Of a DNA stretch of 64,000 bases, positions 6,709-61,122 are shown in pieces. A model generated the notes under the pieces. The model had not been told where the DNA came from and did no database searches. It saw only the letters and a list, made by a program, of their open reading frames with translations. A program made the translations under genes and the position numbers. Numbering within the stretch: position 1 is the stretch's first letter; every line of letters begins with the position of its first letter. The stretch comes from Adineta vaga (taxonomy: Eukaryota; Animalia; Rotifera), in the NCBI GenBank assembly GCA_021613535.1, contig CP075493.1:10664001-10728000 (forward strand), given 5' to 3'.

Positions 6709-7422
6709 ATGGGTAGTCGCAAATCAAAACATATTTCTCCCGTTACAAATCTAACTGATCAACAAGTCGCAAAAATCTGCCATGAAACAAATCTCACTTG
6801 TACCGAAGTTCATCGTCAATATCTTGACTTTCGTGAACAATATCCAGATGGTCTAATTACACGCGAACAGTTTTATGAATGTCTCAACGAAGTTTGGCCT
6901 GAAAGTCACATCGAAAAATTTGCATCACATCTCTTTGCTATCTTGTAAATCTCGAAATACTTTCAATGCAGTTATCATTTCGTATACATAATCACTATTT
7001 CTTTAACAGGGATCAAGATCACAATGGTGCAATTGATTTTATTGAATTCATCAGTTTAACACATAAACTAGATCCTAATTATATCAACGATGAAAATATC
7101 TATCTTGCATTACTTTTTGATATGTTTGATCGTGATCATAATGGGTATGTTTTGTTCATCTTAGTAATTTTATTCTGTATGAATTGATTGAAAAATTAGA
7201 TATTTGGAAAAGCGTGAACTAAAGCCGTTGGTAGAATCGATCTATGATTTAGCTGGTTTGCCAGAAGATGAAAGACATGGAATGAACTCCACTCATGCTC
7301 AAGTGAAACATTTGTTGAATAAACTGGACAAGAATGGTGATAAACGTTTGTCGAAAGAAGAGTTCCTGAATGAACAAACATGGGCGAATGATGAACGACT
7401 TGGACATTTCTTTTTTACGTAA
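6709..7422 (+). CDS. Neuronal calcium sensor/recoverin-family EF-hand protein, copy B (tandem duplicate)
   Basis: Near-identical to 4722-5438 at an offset of 1987 bp; differs only at the extreme C-terminus (FFFT vs FFFNY). Confidence 0.9.
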
Positions 7423-16071: not shown

Positions 16072-16512
16072 TTAATCACCACCTCCGCATCCACCACCAC
16101 CACAGCCACCGCCACCGCCACCACAACCTCCACCTCCACCACAACCTCCACCACCGCCACAACCTCCGCCACCACCACAACCTCCACCTCCGCCACAACC
16201 TCCACCTCCACCGGCGTTACCACCACCGCCACTATTACTCGGTGATACTACTCCACGCATATTATAGTTATTGCCTGGTGGTCGTATCACAGGTTGATTC
16301 CTATTGCGACCAAACATTGCAGCAAGAATACTACCAAAAAACCCGAGTTGTTGAGCTGGTGGTGATGATGAATAATACATAGGACGCTGCATTACCATTT
16401 GTCTATTCGATAATTGAGGTCTTGGATATCGACGAGCATTATATTGTCTTTGACGATAACGATACGAACCATTCGATGATTGATTGGGATATCGATGATA
16501 AGGACGAAACAT
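16072..16512 (-). CDS. Arg/Tyr-rich N-terminus plus (GGGGGC)n glycine/cysteine-rich protein, paralog 1
   Basis: Single-exon ORF from ATG (MFRPYHRY); conserved with the paralog at 18038-18610; putative TATA upstream. Confidence 0.75.
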   Translation of the reverse strand: MFRPYHRYPNQSSNGSYRYRQRQYNARRYPRPQLSNRQMVMQRPMYYSSSPPAQQLGFFGSILAAMFGRNRNQPVIRPPGNNYNMRGVVSPSNSGGGGNAGGGGGCGGGGGCGGGGGCGGGGGCGGGGGCGGGGGGCGGGGCGGGD

Positions 16513-18037
16513 TGTTAACAAAAAATGTTATAGTTGTATACCACGTGTCATACAACTGTACATATATTCATATATAAAATTTGTCTTTCGATCACTTCTC
16601 TTTTCACCTATATATCATAACCGTATCAGAAAGTCAGACTTACTTACGACATAATTAACATGTGCCCGATGTGTGTCGAGTTGTTTACGTTCGGTCTTTA
16701 TTTTTGACGTTGTTAAATGAGTATCATAAAATAGAAAAAAAGTAATGGAAAATATGTGATCATCGAACACAGAATCACATAGTATTCACACGAATATAGC
16801 CATCATACAACGATAACAAAAGATCTAAGTGGATTACTATAAATATATAGATTCTAGATTAATACTGATTATACGAGTGTTTTCAATTATCCAAAGTGAA
16901 TGAATACTTAGACTTTGTCACTTATAATCATTTCAACCGAAAGTAGTCGAAGACATGGTGAAGTAAAGTCTATTTTATGATTATGTATAGAAAATTTTAT
17001 CAAGTATATTTAAACAAGATTTTAATGATGATTAAAATAATCTGTTCTAATAAAATATCAGTGAAATCAGTACAAAACAATGTTGTGAAGAAATATATTG
17101 ATGACAATTGTTTATTCCTTGTTGGTCTATATTTTGATTCGAATGTTATTCACTAATTAGTTAGACATTCTCTGGAATTCTTCTTTGAATATAAATACAG
17201 TAATATGAAGACTGTATTCGTCATCAAAGTGAAAATTTTACTGAGGTTGTATATTTGGAATCAGGTAGACACTTTGGTTTTTTAAAAATAATATGATTGG
17301 ATAATCTTATATAACCGTATTCTTGCTATATTCTTACTAAGGTAGCTGTGACGAAGATTTAATTAGTACTTTTGTTCTTCATCGATCAGCAATATATCGT
17401 GTTTGATAATTCAGATGATCTCTTAATCATTCAGTTTCTTTCTCGCTTTCTCACTCTAACACGATTAAGAATAATCCATACAATATTTCATGCAGCAAAT
17501 ACAAGAAACAATTCGTACTAATAGATGTGCGATTATTTTTGATAAAGATAATATCTTCTTTTGTTATTTTCTTCAAAGGTACAGTATATATTCTATCTTT
17601 CTTTTCGCCAGATCAATGAAAAGACATCCCATATATTCATTTGTATTAATAGTTCATCGTACGAAGGATAAGACAAAAGTGACCAAAATGAGCCACGAGT
17701 TGACAATCTATTTTCGTAAGTATATTAGTCTCAATCTGTGTTCAATAAAATCTATATGAATTGTTCAACACAAATAGAGGGATAGTAAGACTTATTATCT
17801 ATTTATTACCATTAGTTACATAAATTCCGATCATCTGCAGGTTGTTACTATTATTTTTTCAATTTTAGATTTAAAAGAATGAAAAATCGATCAATGGATA
17901 CTGTGTTAGAAAATTTTTCAACACTGGTTGTGAATTGTCGTCATATGACTTTTCTGCTGTATTTAGTCGAAGCTAATAATTTACAAAGAGCCTAACTGAA
18001 TATGTTGAAAGTCTGTTTTATTGATGTTCTTAGTACT

Positions 18038-18610
18038 TTAGTCACCACCACCTCCACCGCCACAACCACCACCGCCGCCACCACCTCCACAACCACCACC
18101 ACCGCCGCTACCTCCACAACCACCACCGCCGCCGCTACCTCCACAACCACCACCACCGCCACTGCCGCTACCTCCACAACCACCACCGCCGCCGCTACCT
18201 CCACAACCACCACCGCCGCCGCTTGTTCCCCCTCCACCGCCGCCACCACTTGTTCCCCCTCCACCGCCACCACCACTTGTTCCACCTCCACCACCACCGC
18301 TTGTTATACCTCCACCACCACCACCGGATGATATGCCTCTACGGACATTACCACCAGCTAATGGTCGTACACCAGATCCACCTCTGTTCAGGCAGAAAAT
18401 TGTAGCAAGAAAAGCCAGAAAACTGTCAAAGAAACCAAGTTGTTGCACCGAACGAGATGGTGGCATTGAATAATACATAGGACGACGAATCAACATATTT
18501 CTATGCGACAATCGAGATCTGGGATATCGCATTGCATGATGTCGTCTTCGGTGAACACGATATAAGCCATTTGCTGATTGATTAGGATAACGTTGGTAAG
18601 AACGGAACAT
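18038..18610 (-). CDS. Arg-rich plus Gly/Cys/Ser-rich protein, paralog 2
   Basis: MFRSYQRYPNQSANG...RPMYYS..QQLGFF..(G5CGGS)n..GD; aligns with paralog 1 at protein level. Confidence 0.75.
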   Translation of the reverse strand: MFRSYQRYPNQSANGLYRVHRRRHHAMRYPRSRLSHRNMLIRRPMYYSMPPSRSVQQLGFFDSFLAFLATIFCLNRGGSGVRPLAGGNVRRGISSGGGGGGITSGGGGGGTSGGGGGGGTSGGGGGGGTSGGGGGCGGSGGGGGCGGSGSGGGGGCGGSGGGGGCGGSGGGGGCGGGGGGGGCGGGGGGD

Positions 18611-19275
18611 ATTCTAATAAGTATGTAGCACGTGTTATACAAATGTATATATGTATATATATATAAACGGTCACAGGTAAAATGTGTCCTTGGACTGCTT
18701 TTCTTTTTACCTTGATGATATATTAGAAAATTAAATGTGTATACGACGTAGTTCCCATGTGCTCGTCATACGTTAATTTGTTTTATTGATGATCGAAAAT
18801 ACGAGTCTTATTGAAGAAAGAATAAACTCATGCTTATACGAATATAAGTAAAAATAGCAAGAATTTCGATCGTAGAATATTTCATAGATACACGTATTGT
18901 AAATGATTTGTTAACTTTGATTGCGGGACTATTGTTTTGATTTTTATACGAAGTCAAAAGAAAATTTGACATATTTCTAAGCATTGCTTCACCTTTAGAA
19001 CTGTAAAAGGGAGTATTTCTATCGAGGTTTGCACAATTTATCCTTTCCTATATACTTCTTAGGTAAATCTTATCATTAAACAAATGACACATTCTATCTC
19101 TGACGTAGTTCGTGTCAAAATAAATATGAATGGTGTAATAACATCTTCCGTCGCTGACTTACTTTAATATATAAAGCAATTCACAGAAACAAAAGATAGA
19201 CTTTTCTTGAGCGATAAGTAAAACTAACAATTACTTAAATTGTATAGAACAAACAGTTTTAAATCTCATAAAGCC

Positions 19276-24261: not shown

Positions 24262-25840
24262 ATGAACAAATTTCTAACGATTCTTTGTCTCACTCTTTTC
24301 ATTTCGGCTTCATTAGCAAAGCAAAAATCAGCTACAGAACAAGCAGCTGATACTGCTGCCGAATTGAAAGATAAAGTTGTCGAAACTGTATGTAATATTT
24401 TATTTATATTCAATTGTATAGTTCATTTCTGATCTAGGTTAAAGATGCATATGATGCAGCTGCACCAAAAGTTGTTGAAGGTGCCGAATATGTCAAAGAT
24501 AAAACTGTCGATGGTGCTGCATTTGTTAAACAAAAAGTTGGTGAAGCATACGAAAATATTGCTCCTAAAGTCGTTGAAGGTGCAGAATTCGTCAAAGACA
24601 AAGCTAATGAAGCCTATGAAAATCTTGGACCAAAGGTTGTTGAAGGTGCAGAATTTGTCAAAGACAAAGCTGTCGATAGCGCTAATTTTGTAAAGGACAA
24701 AGCTAATGAAGCTTATGAAAATCTTGCACCAAAAGTTGCCGAAGGTGCTGCTTTTATCAAGGAAAGAGCCGGCGAAGCTTATGACAATCTTGCACCAAAA
24801 GTAGCAGAAGGTGCCGAATATGTCAAAGATAAAGCTGCTGAAGCATACGACGCAATTAAACCAACAGTCGATGAAGCTTACAAAACTGGAGGTAAAAAGT
24901 ATAAGTTCATAGTTCTTTTTTATTTAATTTCATTCTTTTATTTTAGGCAAACTTGCTGGTGAATATGCTGAAGCTGGTAAAAGAAAGATTTTGTTGGTCA
25001 CACTTTTGATTGATACATGTCGATTGTTTTAGCTAAAGAAAAATTAGCAAAAGTTGCTGAAGATGTCAAAGCTTCAGGTAAAGAGAATAAACGATTAACA
25101 TATTCTTTTTTCTTATAAATAAAATAAAAATTGTCGTATTTTTTTAGCTCAACATTTTGCTGAAGATACAGTTAAAGCTGCTGAACAATACGCCAAAGAT
25201 GGTGTCAAACAAGGTGAAAAACTACGTGATGACGCTATTGAACTTGGCAAAGATAAAGGTTAAATTGATAATAAATCAGCAAAAGGAACTATTTTTACTT
25301 TTTGTTTTTAGCTAATGAAGCACTTAAAGCTGCGCAAAAAGCTAGTCAGTCGATTTGATTATTTGTTTCTTTTTGATAGTCGAAATCTCATTTGAATTTT
25401 ATAGGTGCTGATGCTTATGAAGCTTCACTTGAAACAGCTGCTGGTTTACCAAAGAAAGGTCGAAAATTAGGTACATTCTATTTCTTTTTTTGGATAATTA
25501 TTTTCTAATATTTTCGATTTTTATTAGCTGAACAAACTGTTGAATTAAGTCGAGATAAAGGTATGAATTTCTCTTTTATTGTCTCTTCATTTTTTACTAT
25601 ATTCATGTGAATTATTTCAGCTAATGAAGCTTTAAAAGCTGGTCGTCATGCTGGTAAATAATCTTTAATAGATGTTAATTCAAAATCAATATTTTTCATT
25701 ATTTAGGCTCAGATGCATTAGAAGCAGCTCAAAATTATGTTAAAGAATCAAAAAAACAAGCAGCTAAAAAAGCAAAAGAAACTGCTGAAGAAGCAAGTGA
25801 AACAGCACAAAAGAAGAAACGTCAAGCCACCGAATTATAA
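24262..25840 (+). CDS. lea-1: Group 3 LEA (late embryogenesis abundant) protein with signal peptide and ATEL ER-retention-like C-terminus
   Basis: MNKFLTILCLTLFISASLAKQK; repeats EAYENLAPKVAEGAEFVKDKA; 10 exons; ends KKKRQATEL-stop, as in Adineta LEA1 proteins. Confidence 0.93.
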
Positions 25841-36546: not shown

Positions 36547-37095
36547 TTAACCTTTGCTTGTTTTGGTTTTTGGTGCACATAATTTTTGTGTATGTACTTT
36601 AATTTGATCAGCTTGTGCTGAAGTTAATTTGGCTGTTGTACCATCATCAATAAGATTTGGTTCTGTGAATTTAATACCTTTCTTTTGAATACCATTGATG
36701 AAACAGGTAGCATCGGGAAGAGTTTTCCATGAACGAGCAACCATACATAATTTATTACAGACAGTTCCACCTTTGGGATCTTGTAAATCAAAACGAATTC
36801 CACGACCAAGAGCTGTTGGCATTTCGGATGATAAAACGAAATCTTTGGGATCTTTTAATTGTTTGTATGAATCAATAACATGAACTTTGACTTTACATGC
36901 TTTTGCTACTTGACCAATTGTTTTTAAATGTGGTACAAATGATTTATTAGCCATAATTTTTTCACCACCGAATTCTTTTCCACCTTTAAAGAGTGAAATT
37001 TGACATTTTTCTGTATGACTAAGGAAGAAACCATTTGTATTAGTAATGAAAAGGATTTCAGCAACAATTGCTAAGGTTATGATATACTTCAACAT
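36547..37095 (-). CDS. Secreted Cys-containing protein, peptidase M15/DD-peptidase-like fold, probably inactive
   Basis: Intronless 182-aa ORF with signal peptide; pattern AKACKVKVHVIDSYK...GRGIRFD...CNKLC...CFINGI...PNLIDDG. Family call is from recalled motifs only. Confidence 0.6.
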   Translation of the reverse strand: MLKYIITLAIVAEILFITNTNGFFLSHTEKCQISLFKGGKEFGGEKIMANKSFVPHLKTIGQVAKACKVKVHVIDSYKQLKDPKDFVLSSEMPTALGRGIRFDLQDPKGGTVCNKLCMVARSWKTLPDATCFINGIQKKGIKFTEPNLIDDGTTAKLTSAQADQIKVHTQKLCAPKTKTSKG

Positions 37096-38086
37096 TGTGT
37101 ACGTTTAGCTCTACGGTTAATGTTTAATGTCTATCGGATGTAATGATACAACAGTATTTATATATGTAGATCAGTATCTGTGAAATCTAGAGAGAGAGAA
37201 AAAAAGAGAAGTAATATGCGTCGCTGAAATCTATCAACTATAGCTTGTATAAATATACAACGAAGATAATGATTAATATCCATATGTCATAGAGACATGA
37301 GAGAACTTATCTATTTTTCTTTGAAGAAAGATATAGGAATTCATTATCTGTTGGATGTTATTCATCCATCAAGAAACTATTTTGGGATTAGTTAGAAATA
37401 ATACAATAACCTTGCTTTGTTTCGGAAGATTTATTATTGAATACAAATGTCACGACTAATTCAAAAATAATATTTTCTCATATTTACAACAAAGGATTGA
37501 TTTCATTTTTCAAAATATTCTTGCATATAGCAACAAAGACAAAGTATCATCTCAACAGCTGCGGAAATACTACCCATTGTTGCCTAAAGAAATCAGAAGA
37601 AAATTTAGTCATTTACTTAATAAATTCATTTGATGATGATGTAGATGGATTAATTTTTGCATGCCTCTCACCATCGAAAGACGATTTCTAACAGAATCCT
37701 ACCGAAAATTCTAAAATGTGACGTCGCCACTTCAATCTGGAACAATCTGTTCTTCAAAATTCTTTGTTCTTCGTTAACCTCTAGACGAGCTTGAGAAAAA
37801 CATCTTAAACACTCAAAAGAATTAATACAATTAAAGTATTCAGGATAAGAGAGGAGGGTATTTCGACTGGATCGCATCGCATTTGTAAAACTCGTCAGAA
37901 TCTATTACAAAATACTTTTGAATATTGAATGCGAAGATTATGTTTTGATTTCTTGTTATTGAATCTGATCGAATTTTACTGTCGACTTTAGTTAAATTCT
38001 TATATTGAAATCCAAAGATGATTATAGTTGAGTCCAAACAGATGCCTTAAGTAGAAACTCATTTTTAATTTTTTGTACGTACTTAA

Positions 38087-38614: not shown

Positions 38615-38956
38615 TTAGACTTTGATGGGAACTGTAATATGAAGATAACCATCATTTTTCAATTCCGTTTTGAGTTTATCTAATTCTGCTGTTGGCCAAA
38701 TTGTTACTTGTTTGAATTCAGGTCCAGCTAAAGGAAATATCAAATAGAATCGACGAAAAGAGAAACATGAAATCGTACCTTTATTTTCGAAGTTAATACG
38801 TAAATCATGTCCATTAAGTTTAATATCCATATTGTTAGCTGTTGTTCCAGGTTTTACTTGAAGACGCATATGAAGAATTTTTTTACCTGCTTCACCTGCA
38901 TCTTCTAAGGTTGGATTCCAGGTAGTATTTTGAAGGAATTGTTCGAGAGTAAACAT
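38615..38956 (-). CDS. Minimal small heat-shock protein (alpha-crystallin/HSP20-like), ~96 aa after splicing
   Basis: LQVKPGTTANNMDIKLNGHDLRI...FKQVTIWPTAELDKLKTELKNDGYLHITVP; 51-nt GT-AG intron at 38728-38778. Confidence 0.75.
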   Translation of the reverse strand: MFTLEQFLQNTTWNPTLEDAGEAGKKILHMRLQVKPGTTANNMDIKLNGHDLRINFENKGTISCFSFRRFYLIFPLAGPEFKQVTIWPTAELDKLKTELKNDGYLHITVPIKV

Positions 38957-40328
38957 TTTCTAAAAGAAAAGTATAAGCTTATAGTTTTCATATATCGTCG
39001 ACACTGATCAAAAGATGGGTTTCGTTCGAGGAAAAGCCAGGAATGTATGCAATTTCTATTGTGGTGACACCCAAAGAATCTGCTAAAAGATGGATTTGCT
39101 TTTCTCATCAAGAAACAAAAGAATACAAATATGGACGTTGGAATACAGTATTTATACTATCTGATGGAAACAAATTGGTTTTTCTTCAATATATAAATAA
39201 TCATATGCTAGTATGAATCAATTACTTGCTGAAAAGCAACATGTTCTTTTGATTGACACTTGTCTTTTTTGTCGTCTCACACCTACTCTCTTCCTATACT
39301 TAGATATTAGGTTTCTAAGTACAAGATAGTATTATATCACATATATAGTTTCAGTATATGTGGTATCCTACAGATATTGAATAGTTTTGTTGACATGATG
39401 AAAGCTAGCTCTTCATCTACTTGTCATATGCATTTTGTGGTTTGTTTTAATGAAATATACAATAGAAATGTCAGAAACGTAATATTCTTCTTTATTTTAC
39501 CGTAAATTTAGTTTTCTTTTGTTCTATTCATTATACAAATTGTCTGACCTAATAACGATTGGCAAAGATGTTTAGATATAATTTATAATTTGTACATATT
39601 CACAAGAAGATATTCTTTTTTTTGTGAATCATGGATTTATTCATCTATTATCGACATCTGATTCGTTTATTTTACGGTCAAATAATACTAATCATTTAGT
39701 TTTGTAGAATATTTACTGTATTTTTTGGGATAACAATGTGCCTGAATAGATGCTTTGAAATTATTGCATATTTTCGTTGATTGACACGAAAAAATATCTA
39801 TTTTGAAAATTTCTTATCTAAAATAGTGGTTCCATTTACTACTCTTGCGAATCGTAAAGGATAATTCATTCTATTGTTATACAACTTCGAATCCAGATCA
39901 AAACTATAATTGGAATATCTTTTATACATGCGAATTGGTGCTTTTTGAAACTTTGTATTTGGATGAATTTTTTTACTCAAACATTATCTATAATAAGTGT
40001 TTATGGTCTATATTTGTCTACGACTGATATTTAACTATATTCAATTCACTAGGATAGTATTTGATAGACAATCGTTATAAAAAGAATCTTTTCGTTCATA
40101 CTTTTATATAATCTCTATACAGATTCGGTACATCAAGATGCGTACTAGAACAAAATAAATTTATTATATCACCTGTGATTTTTATTTAAAATACATTGCT
40201 GGCAAATAATAAAGAGACATAAAATATATAGAAAAAAAATCTCGAATAAATGTCAGGCTTATCTCTTTATTTTCTGTGCTTTTTGGTGAAAAAATCAGAT
40301 GTTCTTGTAACTGACGGTTCCGATCTAC

Positions 40329-41940
40329 TTATTGCTGACGATGTTTCAACTTTATTTTAGGAGTTGCACCAACAACAACAGCTGCATCTTTGGCACTCGA
40401 ACTGAAAAAAATAAGATATTACCGTTTCTTCTTCTACAAATATATTTTAGTTTATAATAAACTTACGCAGCAACTTGTTCAGTAATAGCTTCGACTTTAG
40501 CATTAGCTTGAGCTTGTGTATCACGTAAAACACCCATTTTCAATCGGTTAGCTTCTTCATTCAAGTCATCGATACGTTTACGTGCTTCTTCAAGAATCAT
40601 TTCTTGACGTAAGTTTAAATCTTTTTCGAGTAGTGATAAATTTTGTGCTTTGACTGTATTGATTTCTTCAACATATCGTTGTAATTTGTGTTTATATTCT
40701 TCTTCAATAGCAGCTGAACGAACATTGGCATCAGCTAAGAGAGTTTGTTGTTGAATTTGAGTTTCGGCAACAATTCGATTGATAGCTGCTGCAACTTCTT
40801 CATCGATTTGTTGAATGCGACGACGTGAATATTCATCGATTTGTTGATGAGTTGTACCTTAAAACAAGTTGATAAGAACGAGGCAGATATATACAGAAGA
40901 GCGCTTACCAAGTTTGCTCATCAACCTAGCCATTTTTGATGTATAAATATTATTTTCACACGTTTCTGTAACGCTTTCTAATCCTAAATTTTTTATAGAA
41001 ATATTCAAAACACATTGTTTAAAAAAGCATTTTTCGTAACTTTCCAGCATTGAGAAATAAATGTACAGCTCTGTCTTATACCTCTGTCGCTCCCATAACG
41101 AAGATAGAAAGTATATCGAAAATTGATAAAATTACTAAATTCGAAAAGCTTCAAACTATAACAAATATAAATCAAACTTTTCTAATATAAACGTAACAAA
41201 ACTAAACTACTGTAATAATAATTTATTATAATATCTCATGCTATAAAACCTGCGTTTTTCTACGAGTAAACATCGATTCAATCTTTTAGAAATGAATAAC
41301 TATTCATATAATAGATATGTAACAATTAAAGTATTTCCATCTCGTTTTTTGTTTCATAAAACAAATTCGAGAGATTATTTCTTCTGATATACATGACATT
41401 AGCCAAAATAAATTTATTGATCTTACCTAACGTATTAATATGTAGTTTATTGATATAGGATGAAACATCTTTATGAATTGAAATATTAGATGGATTTGTA
41501 AGTTGTTTCTTCAATTGTATTAAGTCGTTTTTAAATTGATTCAAATTTATTTCATTATAATCATCTTCTTCACGAACCGTTGTTAATTGTTTCGCCAGAT
41601 GACCAACTTTGGTTTCTATTTGATTAATATCTTTCGTAATACGTTTACTCAACGATAGTCTCGTATCTTCTGCTGTTTGACGAATTCTTTCAATTGATTC
41701 ACGTTCCCATATATCTACTTCCTTCATTAATGAATGACATTTTGGATCTTTCATTTGTTCATTAAGCGATTGTCTAAATAAATCATGATCAAGGACAATC
41801 TCATCCAGTTGTTGATTTAATTCTTGACGATGGTCTTCCATATGTTTAAAGCAAAAATCTTGCAAGCAGCCTCCACATCTTGATGTACATTTGACTTTAT
41901 TACATTTTAAACAAAGTGTTTTACCAGTTGATGTTGCCAT
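40329..41940 (-). CDS. Predicted chimeric protein: B-box/coiled-coil (TRIM-like) exon spliced to a hydrophilic all-helical CAHS/LEA-like domain
   Basis: Exons 41940-41427, 40983-40909, 40858-40467 and 40401-40329 are all phase-compatible. B-box CLKCNK..CTSRCGGCLQDFCFKHMEDH; helical domain LGTTHQQIDEYSRRR...LEKDLNLRQEMILEEARKRIDDLNEEANRLKMGVL. Confidence 0.65.
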
Positions 41941-42549
41941 ATTCAGAATATTACTACAACGATGATATATTTTTCATGACAGTCAAAAATATAAAAGATA
42001 ACGAAACAAATAAAGATAATAGCTTCTTCTCTCTATTAAAACTACAAGAAGCATTGTTACATTTGAGACGATAATAATACAAGAACATAATATATCTATT
42101 CTTTCAATAATTGATAACAATCCAGGAATATTCTCTTCATTCGATAATGTACAGAATACGACAGATTGTTAGTCAAAATTAAACGAAACTTGTCTTGCTT
42201 TAAAATGTAAATGTACTTGATTATGCACACAAATCTTGGGTACAAAATATGAATGTATTTATACGAAAAAAAAACCCAATGAGGTTTATGTTTTCCTGCT
42301 GCGAATTGGTAAAATATATTTTTCACTGCATGTTTTTTTGTTAACAGAAAGCAAAAACTGAATTAATCCATCAAAAAAGGATATTTTGTTAATAGCATAA
42401 GCATTTCGAAAGTATGTTTTATATCTTCAGTACTATTCTTCTCATGAAAAAAAGAAGATAAAGTTGTCAACAATATGTCAGTCAAAGATATCTTTCTCTA
42501 ATATCTTAAGTATGTTTTCTATTTACTTTTGACATTCATCGAATGGGTC

Positions 42550-43212
42550 ATGAAACAAATAGCTTCATTAACATATACTTTTCTTCTTCTACTATTTTCG
42601 ATAACAAATGTTGAACTAATTTTATTAAAACAACAATTTCAATACTTTGTGAAAAAAGTTGCTTCAACATTTCATGAAAATTGGCGTCAACATTATATGA
42701 CTGAACATCCAAATACACGAAATCGTTTCAAATTAACTCACAATGGATCTCATTATAATTCATCAGATTTTATTTATCCAATGATTCTTACTGTTGGCAC
42801 ATGTCTTGTTCATCGAAATCTTAAAGTAGCACGTGATCGTTATAATTCATCTTTGATTTATATTGATATATTAAATATGGCTTATGATGAATTACCTGCT
42901 GATTGGGCTTATGAAAATGGAGCAACTGCAAGTGTAGCTTGTCGACAAGTTCTAAGAACTGTTCGTCAGAAACGTTCGTTTGATCATAATTTAATCGAAC
43001 AAATTGCAGAAAGAATTCATAATGCATGGATTAAACGTAATGAACATCGAACATCGAAAGATATGCTTTCACCGTATTCGAGTTTGCCTGAAACTGAAAA
43101 AGATAAAGATCGTCGAGCGTTTCTAATTGCTTGTCGTTTATTCAATGAACTACATTTGTATGATTATGTGAAGACAACACCTATCCATTTGATTGAACCA
43201 TCTATCGAATAG
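42550..43212 (+). CDS. Stand-alone RyR-repeat domain protein with N-terminal signal/anchor, intronless
   Basis: Two half-repeats VASTFHENWRQ...YDELPADWAYEN and IAERIHNAWIKRN...PYSSLPETEKDKDR (RyR-domain signature). Confidence 0.75.
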   Translation: MKQIASLTYTFLLLLFSITNVELILLKQQFQYFVKKVASTFHENWRQHYMTEHPNTRNRFKLTHNGSHYNSSDFIYPMILTVGTCLVHRNLKVARDRYNSSLIYIDILNMAYDELPADWAYENGATASVACRQVLRTVRQKRSFDHNLIEQIAERIHNAWIKRNEHRTSKDMLSPYSSLPETEKDKDRRAFLIACRLFNELHLYDYVKTTPIHLIEPSIE

Positions 43213-50049: not shown

Positions 50050-50282
50050 GTGTCTTTTTTTTTGTTTAATATATTATTTTCCTATGAAAAAGGATTTCAA
50101 AAGATATTATTCGATTGAATGTGTGCTTGATTTGAGGCAGAAGATGTCACTAAATATCGTTGTTGATTTACAGAAAAAAACCTATTGGTAATTTAGTATC
50201 GACATAGTTTTGCATGACTATGACTATGCAGAAAAGAAGAGAAAACAAATATAGATTAGTTCAGTTTTAAAAAGTGCAAATA

Positions 50283-50945
50283 ATGGTCGACCAACCACCA
50301 CTTCATCGTTCGGAAGAAATCGAAGATTTAGCTCATCTTACGGCTGAAGATATCAATAAACCATTGATTACTAAAGAAAATAAATCTCAACGTGCATTAA
50401 TCGTGGTCGATATTCAAAATGATTATTTTCCCGGTGGTAAATGGACTCTTCATGGAATAGATGCTGCTGCGGATAATGCAGCACGATTAATTTCAGCAGC
50501 ACGTACAGCTGGTGATTTAATTGTTCATGTTCGTCATGAATTTCCAACAGCTGATGCTCCGTTTTTTGCACCAGGTTCTAAAGGAGCAGAAATTCATCCA
50601 AAAGTACAAAATCGAGAAGATGAAGATGTTATCGTTAAAAATCAAATCAATTCTTTTCGAGATACAAAACTTAAAGAAATTCTTGATCGTAATGGTATTC
50701 GTGAATTGATTATCTGTGGTGCAATGAGCCATATGTGTATCGATGCAGTTACTCGTGCTTCTAATGATTTTGGATACAATTGTATTCTTATTCATGATGC
50801 TTGTGCATCTCGTGACTTAGAATTCAATGGTGTTAAAGTTCCTGCTGAATATGTTCATGCAGCATTTATGTCTGCACTTGGATTTGCTTATGCTAAAACA
50901 ATGTCTGCCGATGAATTTCTCAAAGAGGATAAAGCTGGAAAGTAA
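50283..50945 (+). CDS. Isochorismatase-family cysteine hydrolase, proteobacterial type (HGT candidate), intronless
   Basis: ALIVVDIQNDYFPGG, KNQINSFRDT, GAMSHMCIDAVTRA (D-K-C triad), DACASRDLEFNGVKVPA..VHAAFMSALGFAYA. Confidence 0.92.
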   Translation: MVDQPPLHRSEEIEDLAHLTAEDINKPLITKENKSQRALIVVDIQNDYFPGGKWTLHGIDAAADNAARLISAARTAGDLIVHVRHEFPTADAPFFAPGSKGAEIHPKVQNREDEDVIVKNQINSFRDTKLKEILDRNGIRELIICGAMSHMCIDAVTRASNDFGYNCILIHDACASRDLEFNGVKVPAEYVHAAFMSALGFAYAKTMSADEFLKEDKAGK

Positions 50946-51613
50946 ACATTTATATTTATAATATCTGTTTTATGCTTTTCGAGAAAAACAAACTTTCGCT
51001 ATCTTTAGATATTCTCTTTTTTTCCTTCTTTTTATGGTAGAATAAAATAGATTTTTAAAAAGGAAAATTAGTGATTGTAAATGTAGTAATCACAATTATT
51101 TTAGATTGTATAAATCTATTTCTTTCATTTGTTGATGTGAATTTGTGAGTTGAGAGTATGTTTAACAACATATGAAATCATTGATAAACAGTTCAAATTC
51201 CAGAACAAATACGGAAAAATATTCATGACATGTCAAATTCAATATTCTAAGTGAAGTCTCAATACAAGCAATAATTATAATGAATGCATTGAAAGTAAAA
51301 CATCAGATGTAGTGCAATACATTAAATATTCTTTTGTTCTACAAAGAATTATTTACGATCGACTGTTTTCAACCAACAACTTTTATCTATTGTGTATGGC
51401 ATGTGATGTTTTACGATCAGATAGTATAATTTCCAAGTATTTTGATGGATAGATTTTATTTATAGAAAGATTATAAAATGATAAGAAACAAATTAAAGGG
51501 AAGAATCGGTCAATAAAATGATAATAAACTAATTGATCGATCTTTATAAGCCTTTGAAAAGCACAGATTTTCTTATATCTATCTTCACGATTGAATCTTG
51601 AATATTATTCGTG

Positions 51614-53285
51614 ATGTTGCGAATAATTTTTCTTGTTGGTTGTATCTTTGAATTTGCTGTTTTAATTACAGCAATGACTATGAATAAAGATCAAATTTCT
51701 GGAATTCGATATGCATCATCAGTGCAAATTAATGAGGTTTTGGACCATCTCAATGCTTTACAGAGTATTGCAACAACTTCGAATGGAAATCGAGCTGTGA
51801 ATACAACTGGTTTCAATCGTACTCTTGATTATATTACTGATTATCTTGAGACAAATACAAATTTCATTATTACAAAGCGATTTTTTTCACGAGGAAATTC
51901 TCAATTACTTCGTAATCCAACATTTATATCAATTACTAATGGAGTTGTTAAAACACATACTTATTCGACTAATCTTGCTGTTGCAGAATTTTATCAAGTA
52001 CAATATTCTGGATCAGCATCTTTAATGAGTGACGTTCCACTTATCGTTGTTCCTAATTTAGGTTGTTCAGAGGTTGATTGGAATGCAGCACAACCATCTG
52101 TAGCTGGTCGTGTAGCTATTGTTAAACGAGGTGATTGTACTTTTGAAGAAAAAGCTCGTCTTGCTGCTCAATACAAAGTTGCAGCACTACTGATTTACAA
52201 CGATGGGAGAGCTACTGATGGTACTCGGCCTATTTCTATCAGTATTGGTGTAAATAATCGTGTTCCAGCACTCTTTCTATCATATTCTCTTGGACAAACA
52301 TTAGTAACTGCAGTAAATGATCCATCACGTATTGTAAATATTCGTCTCAGTATTGCCACTGCTCCATTGGATTCTGTAGGCAATATTTGTGCTGATACAC
52401 GAACTGGTGATCCCACACAAACAATTTTGATTGGTAGTCATAGTGATAGTGTTCCTGCTGGACCTGGAATTAATGATAATGGTAAGAAAAATTATTCTAT
52501 ATTTATAGATTTTCCGATTTTCTTTTCATATATTAGGTAGTGGTAGTGCAGCTAATCTTGCTCTAGCTGCTACTTTAGCACGTCTTATGGAAACAGAAGG
52601 TTATACACCATATCGATATCGTACTCGATTTTGTTGGTGGGGTGCCGAAGAATTAGGACTGTTAGGTTCTAGTTATCATGTATCTGAAGCAAAAAAATCA
52701 ACTATTGTTGGCGAACGCATTACAGATTATCTGATTAATATTAATTTAGATATGATCGGATCACCAAATTTTATTTTTGGTATCTATGATGGTAAAACAG
52801 CTCCTACTTCTACTCCAGCAGCTGCTAAACCAGGAAGTAATAAAATGACTGCTTTATTTCAAGATTGGTTTAATCAAAATAAACTACCTTGGGATTATAC
52901 AAAATTTGATGGTCGTAGTGATTATGGTCCATTTTTAGCTGCTGGTATTGCAGCAGGTGGTCTGTTCTCAGGTGACGGAGCGAAGACAACGGAACAACGT
53001 AATCGATATGAAACTATGCTAGGTTCAGGCTTAGGTGGTAGTTCTGGCATTCGATTAGATATATGTTATCATAAAGCTTGTGATAAAACAACTAATATAA
53101 ATGAATTTGCTCTTAATAAAATGATCCAAGCAAGTGCTTATGCTATTGAAAGTCTTGGTCAACAATCCGATTTAAAAACATGGTTATATCCAACCAAAGA
53201 AATTCAACAACTCGAGAAACAATCAGAACCATTCAAATACGAATATAATTCAATGAATGAATACTTTGGAATGCCTTATGAGTGA
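51614..53285 (+). CDS. Secreted M28 aminopeptidase with PA domain (aminopeptidase Y/SGAP-like; HGT candidate), one intron
   Basis: VAIVKRGDCTFEEK (PA), GSHSDSVPAGPGINDNGSG, WWGAEELGLLGS, NLDMIGSPN, DGRSDYGPF, CYHKACD. Confidence 0.92.
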
Positions 53286-54142
53286 CACTGTAACTTTTGT
53301 TTTCCGGTATTTTTCTTTTTCAATTTTCCAATACTGTGAAAACAAATAAATCTTGATCATTCTAATTATCAATATCTCGAAAATTCTAGCTCCACATGTT
53401 TATGTTTGTGTTTCTGTAGGAGAATTCGCCATTAGTTCAACAACTATTAGAACAGATACACTTGAGCCATGTTTCTTCTGCTTGCAAGATTTCTCTTGAA
53501 CAATAAATTACAGTGTTATTCATATCATCACAATTTTTCATTAAAATCACCTTGATCAACGAATACCGAGTCAGTATAAATCTGTGAATGGTATTATAAT
53601 TATTTTCAGGATACGATCATGCTTCTTGACATGAAACTTTACAAACAAATGAAACAAAAAATGATATTATATCTTAAAACTATAGTTGCAATTGCAATGG
53701 CCAATCACCCCCAACGTAGAGGAAAAACGTATCAACGACGAAACATAATTTAATTTATCTGACTTATGTTCATGATTGTCATCTTTTTGTTGCTGCATTG
53801 AATCAATAATTAAAAAAGAATAAAACACATCGCTAGTTGAAAATTCGATATAATTGCTTATTGAATACTGTCAAATATAGAGGAATAACAAATACTAAAA
53901 TTCGAAAGGTTATAAAAGAAACTATTTTATCCAGCATTGTCATAAAGAGAAGATGATTATGTCAACTTGTATCATCACTATACAATGTAACAAACTAGGA
54001 AGCAATTTTATTGTAAATTCATTTCATAAAAATTCATAATTTTGAAAGCAAACTAAGCATACAACATAAAATAATTCACGATAAAAAGTATAGGCATTTC
54101 ATATACGACAGGAGAATATCTACTCTTATATCGCTATTAATT

Positions 54143-55583
54143 TCAAGATCTAATAATCCATTTATTAACCATATTATATTCTCCTTCTAAAACGATCTTA
54201 TAAAAATTTGATCGATATTCTGATATATTAAATACAGCTGATTGATTTATGATTGGAACAGTACCAAGAAGTTTATAATCATCTCTTGAACCATTTTTAA
54301 ACATATTCGTTGTTGTTAACCATACCTTTATATTTCCTGTATTATCAATCATTTTCCATTGAACTGTTAATGCATTACCAGATAATTGAACATTAGGTCT
54401 GGCCAATGAAACTTGTCCAATTAATGGTACACCATCGAATTCTCGTTCTGATTCTAATGGAGCTTTTACTTTCATGAATCTCATCATTGTTGGCATAATA
54501 TCGACTATTGCAGGTTGATATTCTTCAAAATATCGATTCGTATCATGATAATTAGTTACTATCCAAGTAGTTCGTTCTCTTTCTGTTTGATCACCATGAT
54601 TTTGACCAGTAACTGGATCTCGGCCATGATCTGTCGTCAAAATCAAAAGCCATTCTTCGTTGTGATATGTTTGTCGATATTGAATAGCTTCATAAATTCG
54701 TCCGACTTGTTGATCGACATAATCAATTGCTTGATTCATCTGTTCACTATCACCATATTTATGTCCAATATCATCTGTATATTGTAAATATACCCATGAT
54801 ACATCTGGACCATTATCTCTAATACATCTTGATGTTTCATCAACGACACGTTCATCAATACGATGAATATAAAAACTGGCAGAATCATGTGGATAAGTAA
54901 CTAAATCGAATTCATATCCATCGGATTTGTAATCGAATATGAGATTTCCTGCATTAGCTAAACCTTCACCAACAAGTCGAAGACGATTGACAATCCAAGT
55001 TGAAAAGATACCAATCTTTCTTGTTGATTGCTGTTCTTTAATTAATCGAAAAATATTCTTATAATTATAATTTGCATTTCTAACATCATTATCATAAACA
55101 TTGTGTTTATTTCCCCATGTACCTGTGATTAAATTCATATAACCAGGTGCAGATATAGTGATAGTTTCTGAATAAGTACCAATATCACCTCCAACATATG
55201 CTCGTTTATATCTACCAGCTTCTTGAATTTTTCGTATGTTAGGAGCAGGTGCATTTTCGATCGAATTAGCTGATATACCATCAGCAATAATAAATATTAC
55301 TTTTTTGTTAGAAATAACTAAAATAATATGAGAAAAAAACGAATATTTCAGACGATGAATAATAATGAATTTTTTTCTACAATATACCTGTTGAATTTGG
55401 TTTTGATGATACTTTCATAACTACTAATATTAATATAATAATAGTTGCAATTAAAATCAAGATTGCAAGTGCCAAAAGCCATTGTTCGATTTTGATTTTT
55501 TTTCTCCTCACAATTATAACGGTTTCATCTGTTTTTTCGATCTTGTCCTGTACAGGTGATAATTGACCATTGTTTGTAGCCAT
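54143..55583 (-). CDS. Alkaline phosphatase-superfamily phosphodiesterase/nucleotide pyrophosphatase, Bacteroidetes type, with added type II membrane-anchor exon
   Basis: KKVIFIIADGI, RAYVGG, TISAPGY, TGTWGNKHNV, YLQYTDDIGHKYGD, TTDHGRD; exon 1 encodes TM WLLALAILILIATIIILILVVM; intron ~55318-55387. Confidence 0.88.
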
Positions 55584-57676
55584 AAGAAAAGGTGTTTTCG
55601 AAGATTCACCTGAAATATAAAGAAGTTTAATATGTATAAGTTTTATCTAATAAATAAATAGCAGGCAGTCAATTCTATTGAGCTAAAGATTAAAATCTAG
55701 GTTTAGTACATTGTAAACTACATGTTTCATTAAAAAAAGAAAACTATTTATACAATAGCAGCATCATAAACTAAGCTATTGTCCATTCTATCATTACTCT
55801 CAGATTGTAATGGAGAAAACGTTGAGTCGTTCGACATTCTTTTGAAATATAAAATAATAATGAAAAGATAAAATTATACGACTTAGTTAAGAATAAAATT
55901 CTTATCGATTCGAAATATATCACTACTAATATGTGATATTTATCTTTATTGTGCATCTCTTAGATTATTTCTTCTCATTTTTCTTTCTTTTACGTGCTTT
56001 ATTCGATCAAAGTGTATGGTGACCCTATCATTTCTTCCTAATGGATTTTATCTTATGCTTACTTGTCTTTTTCATTATCAATAAGATCTTTCGATTGAAG
56101 GTTACAATGAACTTGACATGTAACATACGTGATGTCTCTTTATATTCGAGTCAAATCGATCCTTTTGTACAAGGCAATATGAAATGAATACTTTACGTTT
56201 GAGATCGATCTTCTTTCTCTTCTTAGATGAACAATAAGAAAAAAGAGACCACAGTTGCCTTTTGAATACAACGATATATAGTTATTTTGATAATGCACAT
56301 AAATCATACCCTTTAGCTTGGAGAATCAATGATGGACAGAATTCTGTTCTTTTAATCTTAGTGAGAAAAAGTCATTCAATAGGTTAGAGCAAACTTACGA
56401 AATGATGTTTATTTCTATAGTTTGTATTTAATCATTTTTATATTCAGCTCTCAAATGGTGTTATTCAAGATTCAGAATTATGAAATTCAATCTTTTAGAA
56501 ATGCATAAACAGATTCTTACACGGCTATGTTTGCATGTTCGTAGAACAAAACTATGTTTTTTGTTATTAACGATATATATACGAGAAATAATAACTTACG
56601 TCTATTATCGACTGTAACAATGTTTTCAAAAAAATAAAGACTTTCGAAAACAGTAAGCGCTCAAATCATAAGAAAAAAAACGCATGAATTCATTATTTCT
56701 AGTTTCGGAGAATATTATCTTGTATACGGTCACTTGACAATCATTGTTTTATAATATTTTCCAGTATTTTTATTCAATACTGACTCGATTTGATTCATTT
56801 CCTGTATGTAATTAGTATATTGTGAAGATTCTCATGAATATATTTGAAGAAAAATAATTCATGTTTATTTATACTAATATAATCAAGAATAGAGAAGATA
56901 TTAGTACAAAAAATATCAATTAGTCAGGCATCTACTACGATGAGAAAAAAAAGAATAACAATGAATATGATTTTGAGTACAGAATGCATTGCACTTGTCA
57001 TTAACAACTATAGAAAAGATCAAATGATTCAAGCCATGTAAAATGAGCTAGTATTATATTTCATACAACGAAATAGATAACAAAAGAAATTCTGATTTCT
57101 CATCATCGGAATGAAGACATTGAGTGCAATTTAAAAATGTATCGACGTCATAAGATTAGCCACAATTATAATGATGTCGATCGATCCACTGTAGAATCTA
57201 TTTTACGGCATGTATTATAATACCTAAAGAAATATGCTACTCTTCAAATCAACCTTGTTAAATTATGTTGTTGAATCAAAGAGCAAACTGAATTGACAGT
57301 GTATTCATTGACATTGATAGATAGTTAGGATTAACTGCAAATATCTCTTTATAATTTTTTTTTCGATTCACATTCTCGTTATCGTATAATGAATCGCAGC
57401 TGTGTCATCATTTTTCATTCGATTTTAATATTTGTGTATGTAAAATATAAATCGTAGAAAAATCGCTGAAAATTTCAAAAAGTAATCTGACGAATAAAAT
57501 CAATATTTTTGTCGATATATCCTCATATAGTCAATCGAACGGAATGCATATTTTTTTTCATGTGATTACGCAAGAATTTACACAATTACATCGTCATGTA
57601 TTCAAACGTGGCATTCACGATAACGACATATATATATATACTTCTTTCGTTCCATTCTAATATCGACATATACGAA

Positions 57677-58430
57677 ATGACTAACGATTCAATCACCATA
57701 CCAACAATGACAAATAAAAAACCAATCATTGCCCTCGATTGTGATGGTGTTCTTTTGAATTATCATTCACAATATTCACACATCTACGAAAAGACATTCG
57801 GAACAAAACCAACTGTCGTTTCACCAAAAGCATTTCATGTAAGTTTAGTTAAATTTAGTTTCCAACTCAATGATTCGAATATACAATCAATAGGCTCGTC
57901 ATACATATGGTATTAATTTTAACAATGAAGAAAAAAAACAATTCGACGATGTATGGACTGAACATGGTTGGAGAACAATGCCAACGCATGATGGTGCAGT
58001 TCAAGCATGTCAATTATTACATGATGCTGGCTATGAGTTAATTTGTGTTACAGCAATGCCTGCTCGTTTTATCGAACATCGATTAGAAAATTTTCGTTCA
58101 CATGGATTTCCAATCGACAATATTATCAGTTCAGGTTATAATGCCCAGGACGATAGTCATAATCCAAAACGAGAAATTATTGAAGATTTACATCCAGTTG
58201 CGTTTGTAGATGATTTTCGAAGAAATTTTCGAAATATTGCCGGTGTTCATACAAAACTTGTCTTTATTGATCATGAATATGAAAATGATCCATGTCAACA
58301 TGATAACATCTATTATGATGTCAAATATCCATCATTGTTAGATTTTGTCGAACATTTTTTGAAAACCGAACAACATGGAGAAAGTATCAATTGGCCAGAA
58401 CGACCAGTACATCTTATTCCTTCTAGTTAA
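57677..58430 (+). CDS. HAD-superfamily hydrolase (5'-nucleotidase/phosphatase-like; bacterial/phage type), one intron
   Basis: IALDCDGVLL (DxD), ICVTAMP, NPKREII, FVDDF; intron 57839-57892. Confidence 0.88.
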
Positions 58431-58563
58431 CTTTTTTATTTATTATTTTCGAAATGTTAAACCTTATTTGTTTCCAATAAACGATCATCATATATCATCT
58501 CTCGCTAAAATATTTATTATTGATATAAATATTCTACAAAAAGAATTGTTTGATAGAAACTAT

Positions 58564-60192
58564 TTAGTCTTCTAATCCTGGAAATTGTTTGTTACGAATA
58601 ATATCAAAAAATAATTTATGATCACGTCGAACTAAAGCTCCATAAACCTAAAATATAGAAGAAGACGAATCAAATTATTATTCTTTCTAACAAATCTCTC
58701 ATCTCTAACCATTCCAAATTCTACCATTTCATCAATAAATTCATTGTCATGACCATGAATAGCATCACGGATTGTTTTTTCGATATGTCGTGGTATAACT
58801 GAGAATGGTAAACAAGCAGCATCTTTCGGTGTATTAATACAATCCGAATCGGCGACGCAATGAATTTTCGCTAGATGAAAAGAAAAAACAAAATTTATAT
58901 TTCAATAGGCAAATATCTTCAATTAACCTGTTGCTTGTCCTAAATATCCAACAACTTCAAGAACATCATTGAAATCATTAATATTCTTCCAATCTAAATC
59001 TTCGGCATGTGCAGTAACTTCATCAACTAAACAAGGAACTGATCCAAGTGTTGTATAACCTAACCATTTCGGTGTCGCTGCTTGCATTGCATATGAACAA
59101 AGAACAATACGAAGACCATCATGATGAAAATATTTTTCTAGATCCGGATGTTCAATGACATAACTAATTGCTGATTTTTGTGCTGGTTTCATATAGAGAA
59201 CAACATCATTTTCAAGTGTTTCTGTTGGACCTTCGACTAAGATTGAATAGGAAATTTTACCAGCCGATCCAACACCTGGTGATGAACGTGCAATGATATC
59301 TTTTATTCGATAATCTTTTCGTCCTTCGTGATCATTCTTTCTTTTCGATTCAGGAATTGATTTAACATATTCATGAAAAGCCTAGAAACAAAATATCACA
59401 TGCCTATTTTTTCGATTTGTTTTTTTTTACCCGAAGAATTTCTTCTCTTGTTTTCTGATCAACATCTTTGTTTGTTTCTGATCGTTTAAATTTTCGATCA
59501 TAATTTTCAATATTTGTCATTGCATTCAAATGAGCCACATGATCTTTCGTTCGAGTTTCATTCAATAATTTTTTAATTTTTCCAGTTGTATTTTGCAATG
59601 TTAATGAAAAATGATCATTGGCTTGTCGATAAAAATCATAAACTTTTTTCAAATATGATTCTGCACAAGAACGTAAAACATCTTGAATTTCACTATCGGA
59701 AAAACCTTTACTATGACAAATTAAATATAACGATGCTAATAAACGTTTAACATCCCATGTAAATGGCCCACAATAACCTTCATCGAAATCATTGACATCA
59801 AAATTCAATATGCCATGATTATCCAAATAAGTACCGAAATTTTCAGCATGTAAATCTCCCTAGAGAAGAATAAAGATAAGAATTTTATGAATAGTAATAT
59901 TTACATGTATAAAGACATGTCCAGCTTCTTTATTGCCATGAATCCATTGATCTTTATCGATTTTTAAATCTTGATAGAATAGGAGTGCGGATCCACGATA
60001 GAAATTGAATGCTGTCGAAGCCATTTTACGAAAACGACCCATAAATGCTTTTGGATTGTCTCGAATGGCATCAGCAAAAAATTTGCTAAAAACATCAACT
60101 ATATATTTTGCTCGTTCATTATCACTTGTCGATCGAATTCGTTCAATCGCTTTTTCATGTGCATTACATTCGATTGATAATTTCGTTGACAT
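58564..60192 (-). CDS. DUF2252 family protein (kinase/APH-like fold; bacterial type), 4 introns
   Basis: RFRKMASTAFNFYRGSALLFYQD, HGDLHAENFG, FDVNDFDEG, WDVKRL, GVGSAG, MKPAQKS, MQAATPKWLG, LGQATAKIH. Confidence 0.9.
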
Positions 60193-61122
60193 GATAGTTC
60201 GTCTGTTCTTCGTATTTCTTTTTGAAAGAATAAAAAAATCGAGTTGATCGGTGACTTTTTTTTACCGGTTGTTAGACATTTCTTTTGCGGCAGAAACTAT
60301 TGACAATCGTTGACAAGAATTCGTATTGTTTATTACTGAATTTTTGTTTTGACGACGATGTGAAACGTTCTATTAACATACTTTACACTCCTCCCTCTAA
60401 GAAACATTTGAAAAATTATAATAATAATAATAAAAAGGAAACTCATGTTTATTCAAATATCAAATGCATAAATAATCAAAAGAATCTATTTTTATGCGTC
60501 GATTTAAGATAAAAGTTTTGCTAATCTACTTATTTTATTCGTTGTTTCTCTAATAGATTTAATTTGAGTAATCAAACATCTGAAATTGACTTCAGCATGA
60601 AAATATTTCTCTACGGGATACATCAATACATTAGAAATTGATGAATAAACAAGAAAAAATATCTTTGTAACCTTGAAAATGACTTGATTGTTCGTTTTCT
60701 AACTATTGTCAAGAGATTCCATCTAGTCTAACTTCTATATTGTACATATACGAATCAATATTCATAAGAGAAATGAATAGGTATATTTCTTTCGTTTATA
60801 ATTCATTGAGAGTAAATAAAGTCTTGTTTAATTTTATTTTAGAGACACGTTAACTAACGAGTCTTGATAATGATATAAATTCCACGAAAAAAAAGAAAAA
60901 AAAAAGAAAAGCAATAAATTGTACCTAGAGAGAAACACACATAGTCTTTTGTTTTGTTTTTTTGTTGTTGTCTAAAAGGTAAACGAAAGAACATGGACTA
61001 GAAGAAGAGAATAGGCGAGAGAAAGAAAGGATATATCATTCTGGTAGGAGAATTTTCAAGAGACTAAGACTACCACAACATATGTATGGCACAACATCGA
61101 ATGAAAAGAATTTGTTTGCTTT

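Follow-up and report, generated by a model that had tools for sequence, protein, structure and literature searches.

Bdelloid rotifers tolerate desiccation in the absence of trehalose; the protectants most often cited for them are LEA proteins. CAHS proteins are called unique to tardigrades in the excerpted texts of PMC7640644 and PMC3429414, which define them by an HTD/E region and the motif ASAARIS (PMC7640644) together with two 19-mers (PMC3429414), the 19-mer motif being built as octapeptide-tripeptide-octapeptide (PMC3429414). According to the excerpted text of PMC10949331, the amphipathic linker of CAHS D, residues 91-195 (105 residues), brings about antiparallel dimers, strand contacts between unlike ends then produce the network, and gelling requires both ends, variants reduced to the linker failing to gel. 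The excerpts of PMC10809525 mention neither CAHS nor B-box.

The window, i.e. the whole 64,000-nucleotide stretch of the Adineta vaga genome that was analysed, carries on its minus strand a gene in which a B-box-like/coiled-coil exon is joined in frame to a long charged helix, the latter sitting in the slot of NHL repeats. Such a chimera had been announced in a preliminary description made from the letters alone, and it proved real. Its helical half is a trimmed copy, 94% identical, of a bdelloid gene of about 245 aa, hereafter the parent (P0002, I4U23_003421, 243 aa), which is a neighbour of the chimera. No description of the chimera or of the parent family was found in the literature searched, although subscription papers and supplements might hold one.

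Structure and transcripts of the chimeric gene

The open reading frame comprises four exons on the minus strand (41940-41427, 40983-40909, 40857-40467 and 40401-40329), adding up to 1053 nt and 350 aa with a single terminal stop. Exon 1 (41427..41940) encodes a Cys/His zinc knuckle of B-box1-like type and then a long coiled coil, 171 aa without a RING, and ends on a phase-1 donor. Intron 1 (40984..41426; 443 nt, GT-AG, phase 1) shares part of its sequence by homology with the first intron of the B6 chimera. The 75 nt of exon 2 (40909..40983) encode a diverged linker, after which the parent-derived helix begins, and stand in for the N-terminal strand region of the parent. Intron 2 (40858..40908, 51 nt) occupies the position of the parent's first intron. 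The long amphipathic helix is carried by exon 3 (40467..40857, 391 nt), which matches at 100% the A. vaga protein P0001 (I4U23_003440) and at 94% amino acid identity the paralogous parent, with 17 nt differences from the latter. After intron 3 (40402..40466, 65 nt, phase 2), the coding part of exon 4 (40329..40401) lacks, through an internal deletion, the Thr/Val-rich C-terminal strand of the parent and ends in a short basic tail produced by a 2-nt indel, the parent contigs omitting two letters at 40353. The 3' UTR (40160..40328) contains AATAAA near 40186 and extends to a poly(A) site at about 40160, where a contig of run X20 ends.

The strong phase-1 donor and phase-1 acceptor on which the preliminary description relied are both canonical: TTAG/GTAAG after 41427 and TTTAG/G at 40983 are present in the sequence, in phase. 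The usual downstream NHL exons are absent as it stated, none being found from the end of exon 1 down to the poly(A) site, and the helical stretch of about 130 aa is free of Pro, Trp and Cys, as reported, and of Phe too. That this stretch is helical agrees with the single helix predicted for it, the prediction having been made on the parent protein.

Eight runs were examined in all for the joints of the chimera. The RNA-like ones are recorded as 'RNA?' or '?' and are taken as RNA because their assembled contigs are spliced. The joint between exons 1 and 2 (40982/41426, CT..AC on the plus strand) was found in contigs of four RNA-like runs (X15, X16, X17 and X11) belonging to three studies (P6, P7 and P5). 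It was found in neither of the two DNA runs (X1 and X3), where all 30 bins are covered and intron 1 is present; a processed or deleted DNA copy was rejected on these grounds. One 758-nt contig aligns to 41984-41426, 40982-40908 and 40855-40733, and the joint is spanned by a pair of allelic contigs in run X11 and by another in run X17. The RNA contigs of the chimera start at 41955-41988. In run X20 only the 3' end of the chimera is covered, showing the joint 40401/40467 and the poly(A) end at 40160, and run X18, with 6 bins covered, comes from another organism and has no bearing on the joint. As exon 1 and exon 4 are joined by no single contig, we infer the full-length mRNA.

The NCBI model P0001 (258 aa) describes the same fusion with a donor placed after residue 80. 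The corresponding joint was seen in none of the runs examined, and the RNA contigs back the donor of the preliminary description over that of NCBI. An independent start of the helical gene at 41050 was rejected as well, the segment 41018-41365 being without cover in the RNA-like runs and contigs joining across it, while the ATG at 40933 may serve as the start of a minor form. Since this ATG could begin a shorter helical protein, and exons 1 and 4 never lie on one contig, two separate genes linked only by read-through or by a gene-model error have to be considered. We hold this highly improbable, given that the canonical in-frame joint recurs in four runs of three studies and on both alleles and that the identical architecture recurs in other lineages. 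The contig depths of chimera and parent in four runs were 19/1448, 14/981, 17/184 and 23/6147 (0.4-9%); because contig depth measures expression poorly, calling the chimera scarce is a rough estimate.

The knuckle of exon 1 is formed by residues C10, C13, C22, C25, C30, H33 and H37. Across 52 rows, Cys10, Cys22, Cys25, Cys30 and His37 are invariant and Cys13 is nearly so; His33 is invariant in 6. The AlphaFold model of exon 1 (pLDDT 88.5 overall) consists of a three-strand knuckle (strands 7-30) and of helices 31-64, 70-125 and 130-148 (pLDDT about 90), and this prediction of helices directly after the knuckle would place the coiled coil right behind the B-box. The best Foldseek row was the PML B1-box (probability 0.85, rmsd 1.5 over 33 columns) with a non-significant E of 1.0; TRIM19, TRIM72 and TRIM5alpha were weakly alike, all with E of 1.0 or more. 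VIA-align returned generic helices only (best Z 8.1). With Pfam, an ANCHR-like B-box was matched below the cut-off in 5 of 9 relatives (E 0.003-0.18) and no B-box was matched in exon 1 of the window. A TRIM25 match had an E of 0.2. No RING match was obtained in the 350-aa frame, which opens with the zinc knuckle. Exon 1 is B-box-like and RING-less.

NHL repeats, named as the usual partner in the preliminary description, do follow this exon in 49 of the 52 longer relatives surveyed, the others having a SPRY-like end (2, e.g. P0315) or an unnamed tail (1), and a DUF7910 end was also seen (P0104). At L012:1101-2214, a truncated fragment of a Tpt1/KptA 2'-phosphotransferase (Pfam E 1.5e-21) lies downstream of another B-box-like/coiled-coil exon, a candidate fusion. 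The labels Tpt1, SPRY, DUF7910 and stonustoxin (see below) were taken from Pfam or from source names. Since NHL, SPRY-like, DUF7910 and Tpt1/KptA modules are found behind it, the B-box-like scaffold appears to accept varied C-terminal modules.

Just downstream of the chimera lies a small HSP20-like gene (38615-38959, minus strand; Pfam E 0.11), and a single-exon frame at 36547-37104 (minus strand) has Cys pairs and a start resembling a signal peptide, and Pfam gave no match for it. A bacterial-type cluster at 50271-60261 includes isochorismatase-like, M28 peptidase and DUF2252-like genes, flagged for HGT in a published table by gene order, and a phosphodiesterase-like frame (54143-55414) labelled by eye. 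Also labelled by eye were duplicated Gly/Cys-rich genes (16072-16527 and 18038-18613, minus strand), a tandem EF-hand gene pair (4611-4961 and 6610-6948, plus strand) and a mariner-like transposase remnant (8856-9206, plus strand). The published table (PMC12220480) uses FUN numbers, onto which NCBI locus numbers do not map. If gene order alone is followed, FUN_001951 may correspond to the parent, and either FUN_001934 or FUN_001935 to the chimera, unless the latter is unannotated; being matched in this way, these assignments are not counted as evidence.

Origin and spread of the fusion

When seven genomes were queried with exon 1, the top match was a chimera in four (B1, B4, B6 and B15), the B4 and B6 loci being identical, and no chimera appeared among the top three exon 1 matches in B3, B9 and B16. 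The window and B1 both have the frame of the chimera open, and so does the B4/B6 lineage, which is divergent though labelled as the same species. There the chimera (L010/L011) is a syntenic frame of 354 aa, with an exon 1 shorter by 8 codons and a displaced intron-1 acceptor; intron 1 of the window and of L011 agree at 67% over 146 nt. A RyR-domain neighbour (42502..43212, plus strand; E 2.5e-7), a single long frame lying head to head with the chimera, is kept beside it in B4 and B6 (window versus B6: dS 0.28, dN 0.11, dN/dS about 0.4). In A. steineri, two chimeras are annotated, P0009 and P0042, each in two assemblies. The exon 1 of a further locus, L013, is 90% identical to that of P0009; it has an early stop after the helix, and the RyR-domain gene is absent from the 1.1 kb upstream. 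The C-terminal strand is lost or degraded in all four of the window, B6, P0009 and P0042 chimeras. The fusion is probably old and is shared among Adineta lineages.

In the A. steineri fusions P0009, P0007 and L013, about 37 aa of the helix are duplicated internally. P0007, a gene model of 877 aa and a candidate fusion, places the helical exon of the chimeras after a series of stonustoxin-like MACPF, helical, thioredoxin-like and FN3 domains; its accession is close to that of P0009 in one assembly.

The two halves of the chimera tell different histories. In a quick tree of 61 rows, few of them non-chimeric A. vaga rows, all five chimeric B-box exons fell on one side of a branch (SH-aLRT 98). 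The dN/dS of exon 1 was 0.49 (p 0.003) between the window and B6 and 0.37 (p 2e-6) against B15, values that place exon 1 under purifying selection. The helical half follows the parent. A tract of the window (40384..40944, minus strand) has 96% DNA identity to the parent locus of genome B1, introns 2 and 3 included, and is probably a gene-conversion tract. Similarly, the B6 chimera and the B6 parent are 90% identical over 601 nt, introns included, and their helices differ by a dS of 0.07, versus 0.27 between the window and B6 chimeras. Of the informative sites of the helix, 24 follow lineage and 2 follow orthology, with 2 showing some other pattern. A single clade of the three chimeric helices was rejected (p-AU 0.017) and a clade of the window and B6 helices, at the protein level, was not (p-AU 0.15); the helical halves group with own-species parents. 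At the 17 diagnostic sites, haplotype L001 has the parent letter at 9 consecutive ones and L002 at 2, and the L001 tract may be a recent conversion or an assembly error.

As the exon 1 sequences group together yet the helix matches each lineage's own parent, one fusion before the split of A. vaga and A. steineri, followed by repeated gene conversion from the parent, is very probable. Gene conversion is much discussed in the bdelloid lineage. Independent fusions in each lineage would also bring the helical halves next to own-species parents, and would suit the missing RyR-domain gene upstream of L013 and the fact that synteny was not seen in A. steineri. They would leave aside the grouping of the chimeric B-box exons, the intron 1 and neighbour gene common to the window and B6, and the two residues with which exon 2 opens, identical in B6, P0009 and P0042, and we find them improbable. 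The exon shuffling proposed in the preliminary description was not of the classic phase-matched kind, for the parent's first exon is uninterrupted at that point and the parent-derived DNA begins inside exon 2. The result is a fusion gene whose halves have different histories, one inherited by orthology and the other re-copied from the parent, so that co-evolution by gene conversion becomes directly testable.

A match to the parent need not be selected, since conversion between nearby paralogues occurs passively. Between the B6 chimera and its parent the dN/dS of the helix was 1.07, and the window differs from its parent by 8 nonsynonymous and 7 synonymous codons. On these counts the chimeric helix evolves faster than the parent, which relaxation or a decoy role would fit as well as the capping role discussed below. 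The chimera might then be a weakly constrained by-product, a low-expressed duplicate matched to the parent by passive conversion, with a helix lacking a function of its own. Besides the B6 ratio near 1, this would agree with tails that decay differently per lineage, with the patchy presence across the genomes tried and with allelic differences of 10 synonymous to 11 nonsynonymous and 7 to 10. We regard it as rather unlikely in view of the purifying selection on exon 1, of a frame kept across dS values of 0.47-0.86 and a shifted acceptor, and of the lack of any stop in exons 1-3 of L001 and, outside 59 uncovered codons, in L002.

The parent family compared with CAHS and LEA proteins

The family yielded 102 relatives, mostly of 240-260 aa, the named ones coming from Adineta, Rotaria and Didymodactylos; a profile search matched 288 cluster representatives and listed 150 of them. 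Structure prediction gave the parent a single helix (33-199) with low-confidence ends. Across the family, the hydrophobicity period is 3.66-3.68 in the helix (11/3), and a period of 2.0 appears in residues 18-42 and, more weakly, in residues 196-214. The parent is thus predicted to have a strand-helix-strand organisation with 11-residue periodicity, a CAHS-like layout. Pfam, PDB sequence and Foldseek searches yielded no name for the helix family, the Atlas named clusters returned nothing for the helix, and a pattern scan of prokaryote genomes and viral contigs, a weak negative, gave no relative.

Unnamed homologues of the parent were found at 38-42% identity, with close relatives on contigs of GC3 0.70-0.92 (L005-L008), compared with the 30% GC of the A. 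vaga genome. These high-GC homologues possibly reflect a gene-transfer link or a wider family. The homologues that look non-bdelloid are L005-L008 and P0133, P0135, P0136, P0141, P0145, P0142 and P0253.

The preliminary description had likened the helical domain to CAHS or LEA proteins. As to layout, the likeness stands for the parent as a prediction: a dumbbell organisation is predicted for it (helix 33-199, period 2.0 at 18-42), and the chimera does not have it. As to sequence, two hallmark motifs are missing and the lead is one Atlas match. In place of the N-terminal HTD/E region the parent P0002 has HTA, it has no ASAARIS, and the chimera has neither. The best class match to the 19-mer pattern was 12/16, obtained once, at parent residue 153, a score that any 11-periodic helix might reach; the family mean was 11.65 against 9.89 +/- 0.89 for shuffles, about 2 SD above. 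In the Atlas, a mostly tardigrade cluster of 224 aa, not named CAHS, was the second match at 0.88 (0.89 for P0133), below the 0.9 line. No CAHS-named sequence occurred among the matches listed (150 of the 288 profile hits) or in the PDB profile searches.

The LEA side was similar. No Pfam LEA family matched any of 46 parent-family members at E 0.01, but the search is insensitive, since a LEA-like frame of the window (24438-24959) was missed as well. The LEA 11-mer was matched at best at 8/9 in the parent family, with weak apolipoprotein matches, and tandem 11-mer repeats were not apparent, the 22-mer score of 11.64 lying within about 1 SD of shuffles (10.62 +/- 0.94). The LEA-like gene in question (24438-24962, plus strand) is a group 3 LEA-like repeat frame some 16 kb from the chimera and corresponds, by gene order in the published table, to lea-1B' (FUN_001941). 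This gene and the chimera lie in one common region, to which the parent probably belongs as well.

From the predicted layout, it is plausible that the parent works like a CAHS protein. It marks an undescribed, conserved and apparently abundant family with a CAHS-like layout, which makes it a concrete candidate for drying protection.

Possible roles of the chimera and comparison with known systems

By analogy with CAHS D and from the predicted structures, the chimera could be a scarce, sequence-matched partner that co-assembles with the abundant parent and caps or tethers its assemblies, a reading to which we give a probability of roughly 0.4. Like CAHS D, the parent would pair through its 11-residue-periodic helix, its end strands serving to form networks. 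The chimera, which retains the pairing helix, would enter parent helix bundles without extending the network, because its C-terminal strand is lost. Its TRIM-type coiled coil would dimerise it and so present two helices, and repeated conversion from the parent would keep these matched. The chimera contig depth, at 0.4-9% of the parent's, and the loss of the C-terminal strand in four chimeras agree with this role; against it stand the relaxation of the helix relative to the parent, the possibility of passive conversion, the patchy presence (not seen in B3, B9 and B16) and the early stop of L013. The chimera is a natural end-deleted variant of the parent.

A bolder version, which we think doubtful, is that bdelloids own an extensive gel-forming family of CAHS type that has been overlooked, which would have homologues in high-GC eukaryotes and possible kinship to CAHS, and that the Adineta chimera is its dedicated regulator, a pairing helix mounted on a TRIM-type dimeriser and kept compatible by repeated conversion from the parent.

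The variety of C-termini borne by the scaffold (NHL in 49/52, SPRY-like in P0315, DUF7910 in P0104, the Tpt1/KptA fragment downstream in L012) leads to another proposal, that of an integrated decoy or sensor. Integrated-decoy immune receptors provide the analogy for such a bait module. The helix copy, placed in the slot of a recognition domain, would lure a parasite factor or a damage signal that targets the parent, and conversion would keep this bait matched. The modelling of the same helical exon behind the stonustoxin-like MACPF-FN3 protein P0007 of A. steineri would fit, although P0007 is a candidate gene model, and so would the alteration of the same few residues just past the start of exon 3 in both A. 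vaga-labelled chimeras. A. vaga does have fungal parasites (PMC11258130), but the excerpts of that source are without mention of NHL, B-box or TRIM, an immune role of the bdelloid B-box family is only putative, and no dN/dS above 1 was supported. We consider a decoy unlikely, if worth keeping in mind.

As a RING-less TRIM-like protein, the chimera could instead act as a turnover adaptor, its helix binding the parent and its coiled coil pairing with a ligase or autophagy partner, so that assemblies are cleared after rehydration. Low abundance would suit an adaptor, and the fold is weakly like that of TRIM19, TRIM72 and TRIM5alpha. With no RING in the frame, non-significant fold matches (E 1.0 or more) and a partner that is only putative, this role seems quite unlikely.

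The parent is close to CAHS D in size (243 aa), in the disordered, strand-prone ends predicted to flank one long amphipathic helix and in belonging to no Pfam family. It differs by a helix of about 167 aa versus the 105-residue linker, by the lack of HTD/E and ASAARIS and by a single partial 19-mer instead of two; the chimera differs further in being without the end strand that CAHS D needs for gelling. With the 11-mer helices of group 3 LEA and apolipoprotein-like proteins the parent family shares its periodicity of 3.66-3.68, but in place of tandem repeats it has one helix, conserved site by site, between strand flanks that are conserved too. Like TRIM/RBCC proteins, the chimera combines a zinc knuckle, then a long coiled coil with predicted dimerisation, and a variable C-terminal module, and its bdelloid relatives end in NHL or SPRY-like modules as in the TRIM-NHL and TRIM-SPRY classes. 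Unlike TRIM/RBCC proteins, it has no RING, has 7 conserved Cys/His and has no Pfam B-box above cut-off, and where TRIM-NHL and TRIM-SPRY proteins have NHL or B30.2/SPRY, it has the copy of a self helical protein. The Sdic gene of Drosophila is reportedly a chimeric duplicate with conversion among its copies, and the chimera resembles it in that parts of two genes were fused before conversion among copies. What sets it apart from Sdic-type chimeras and from integrated decoys is that conversion would have taken place, in two lineages at least, between the chimera and a parent that is still intact, the N-terminal half keeping to orthology.
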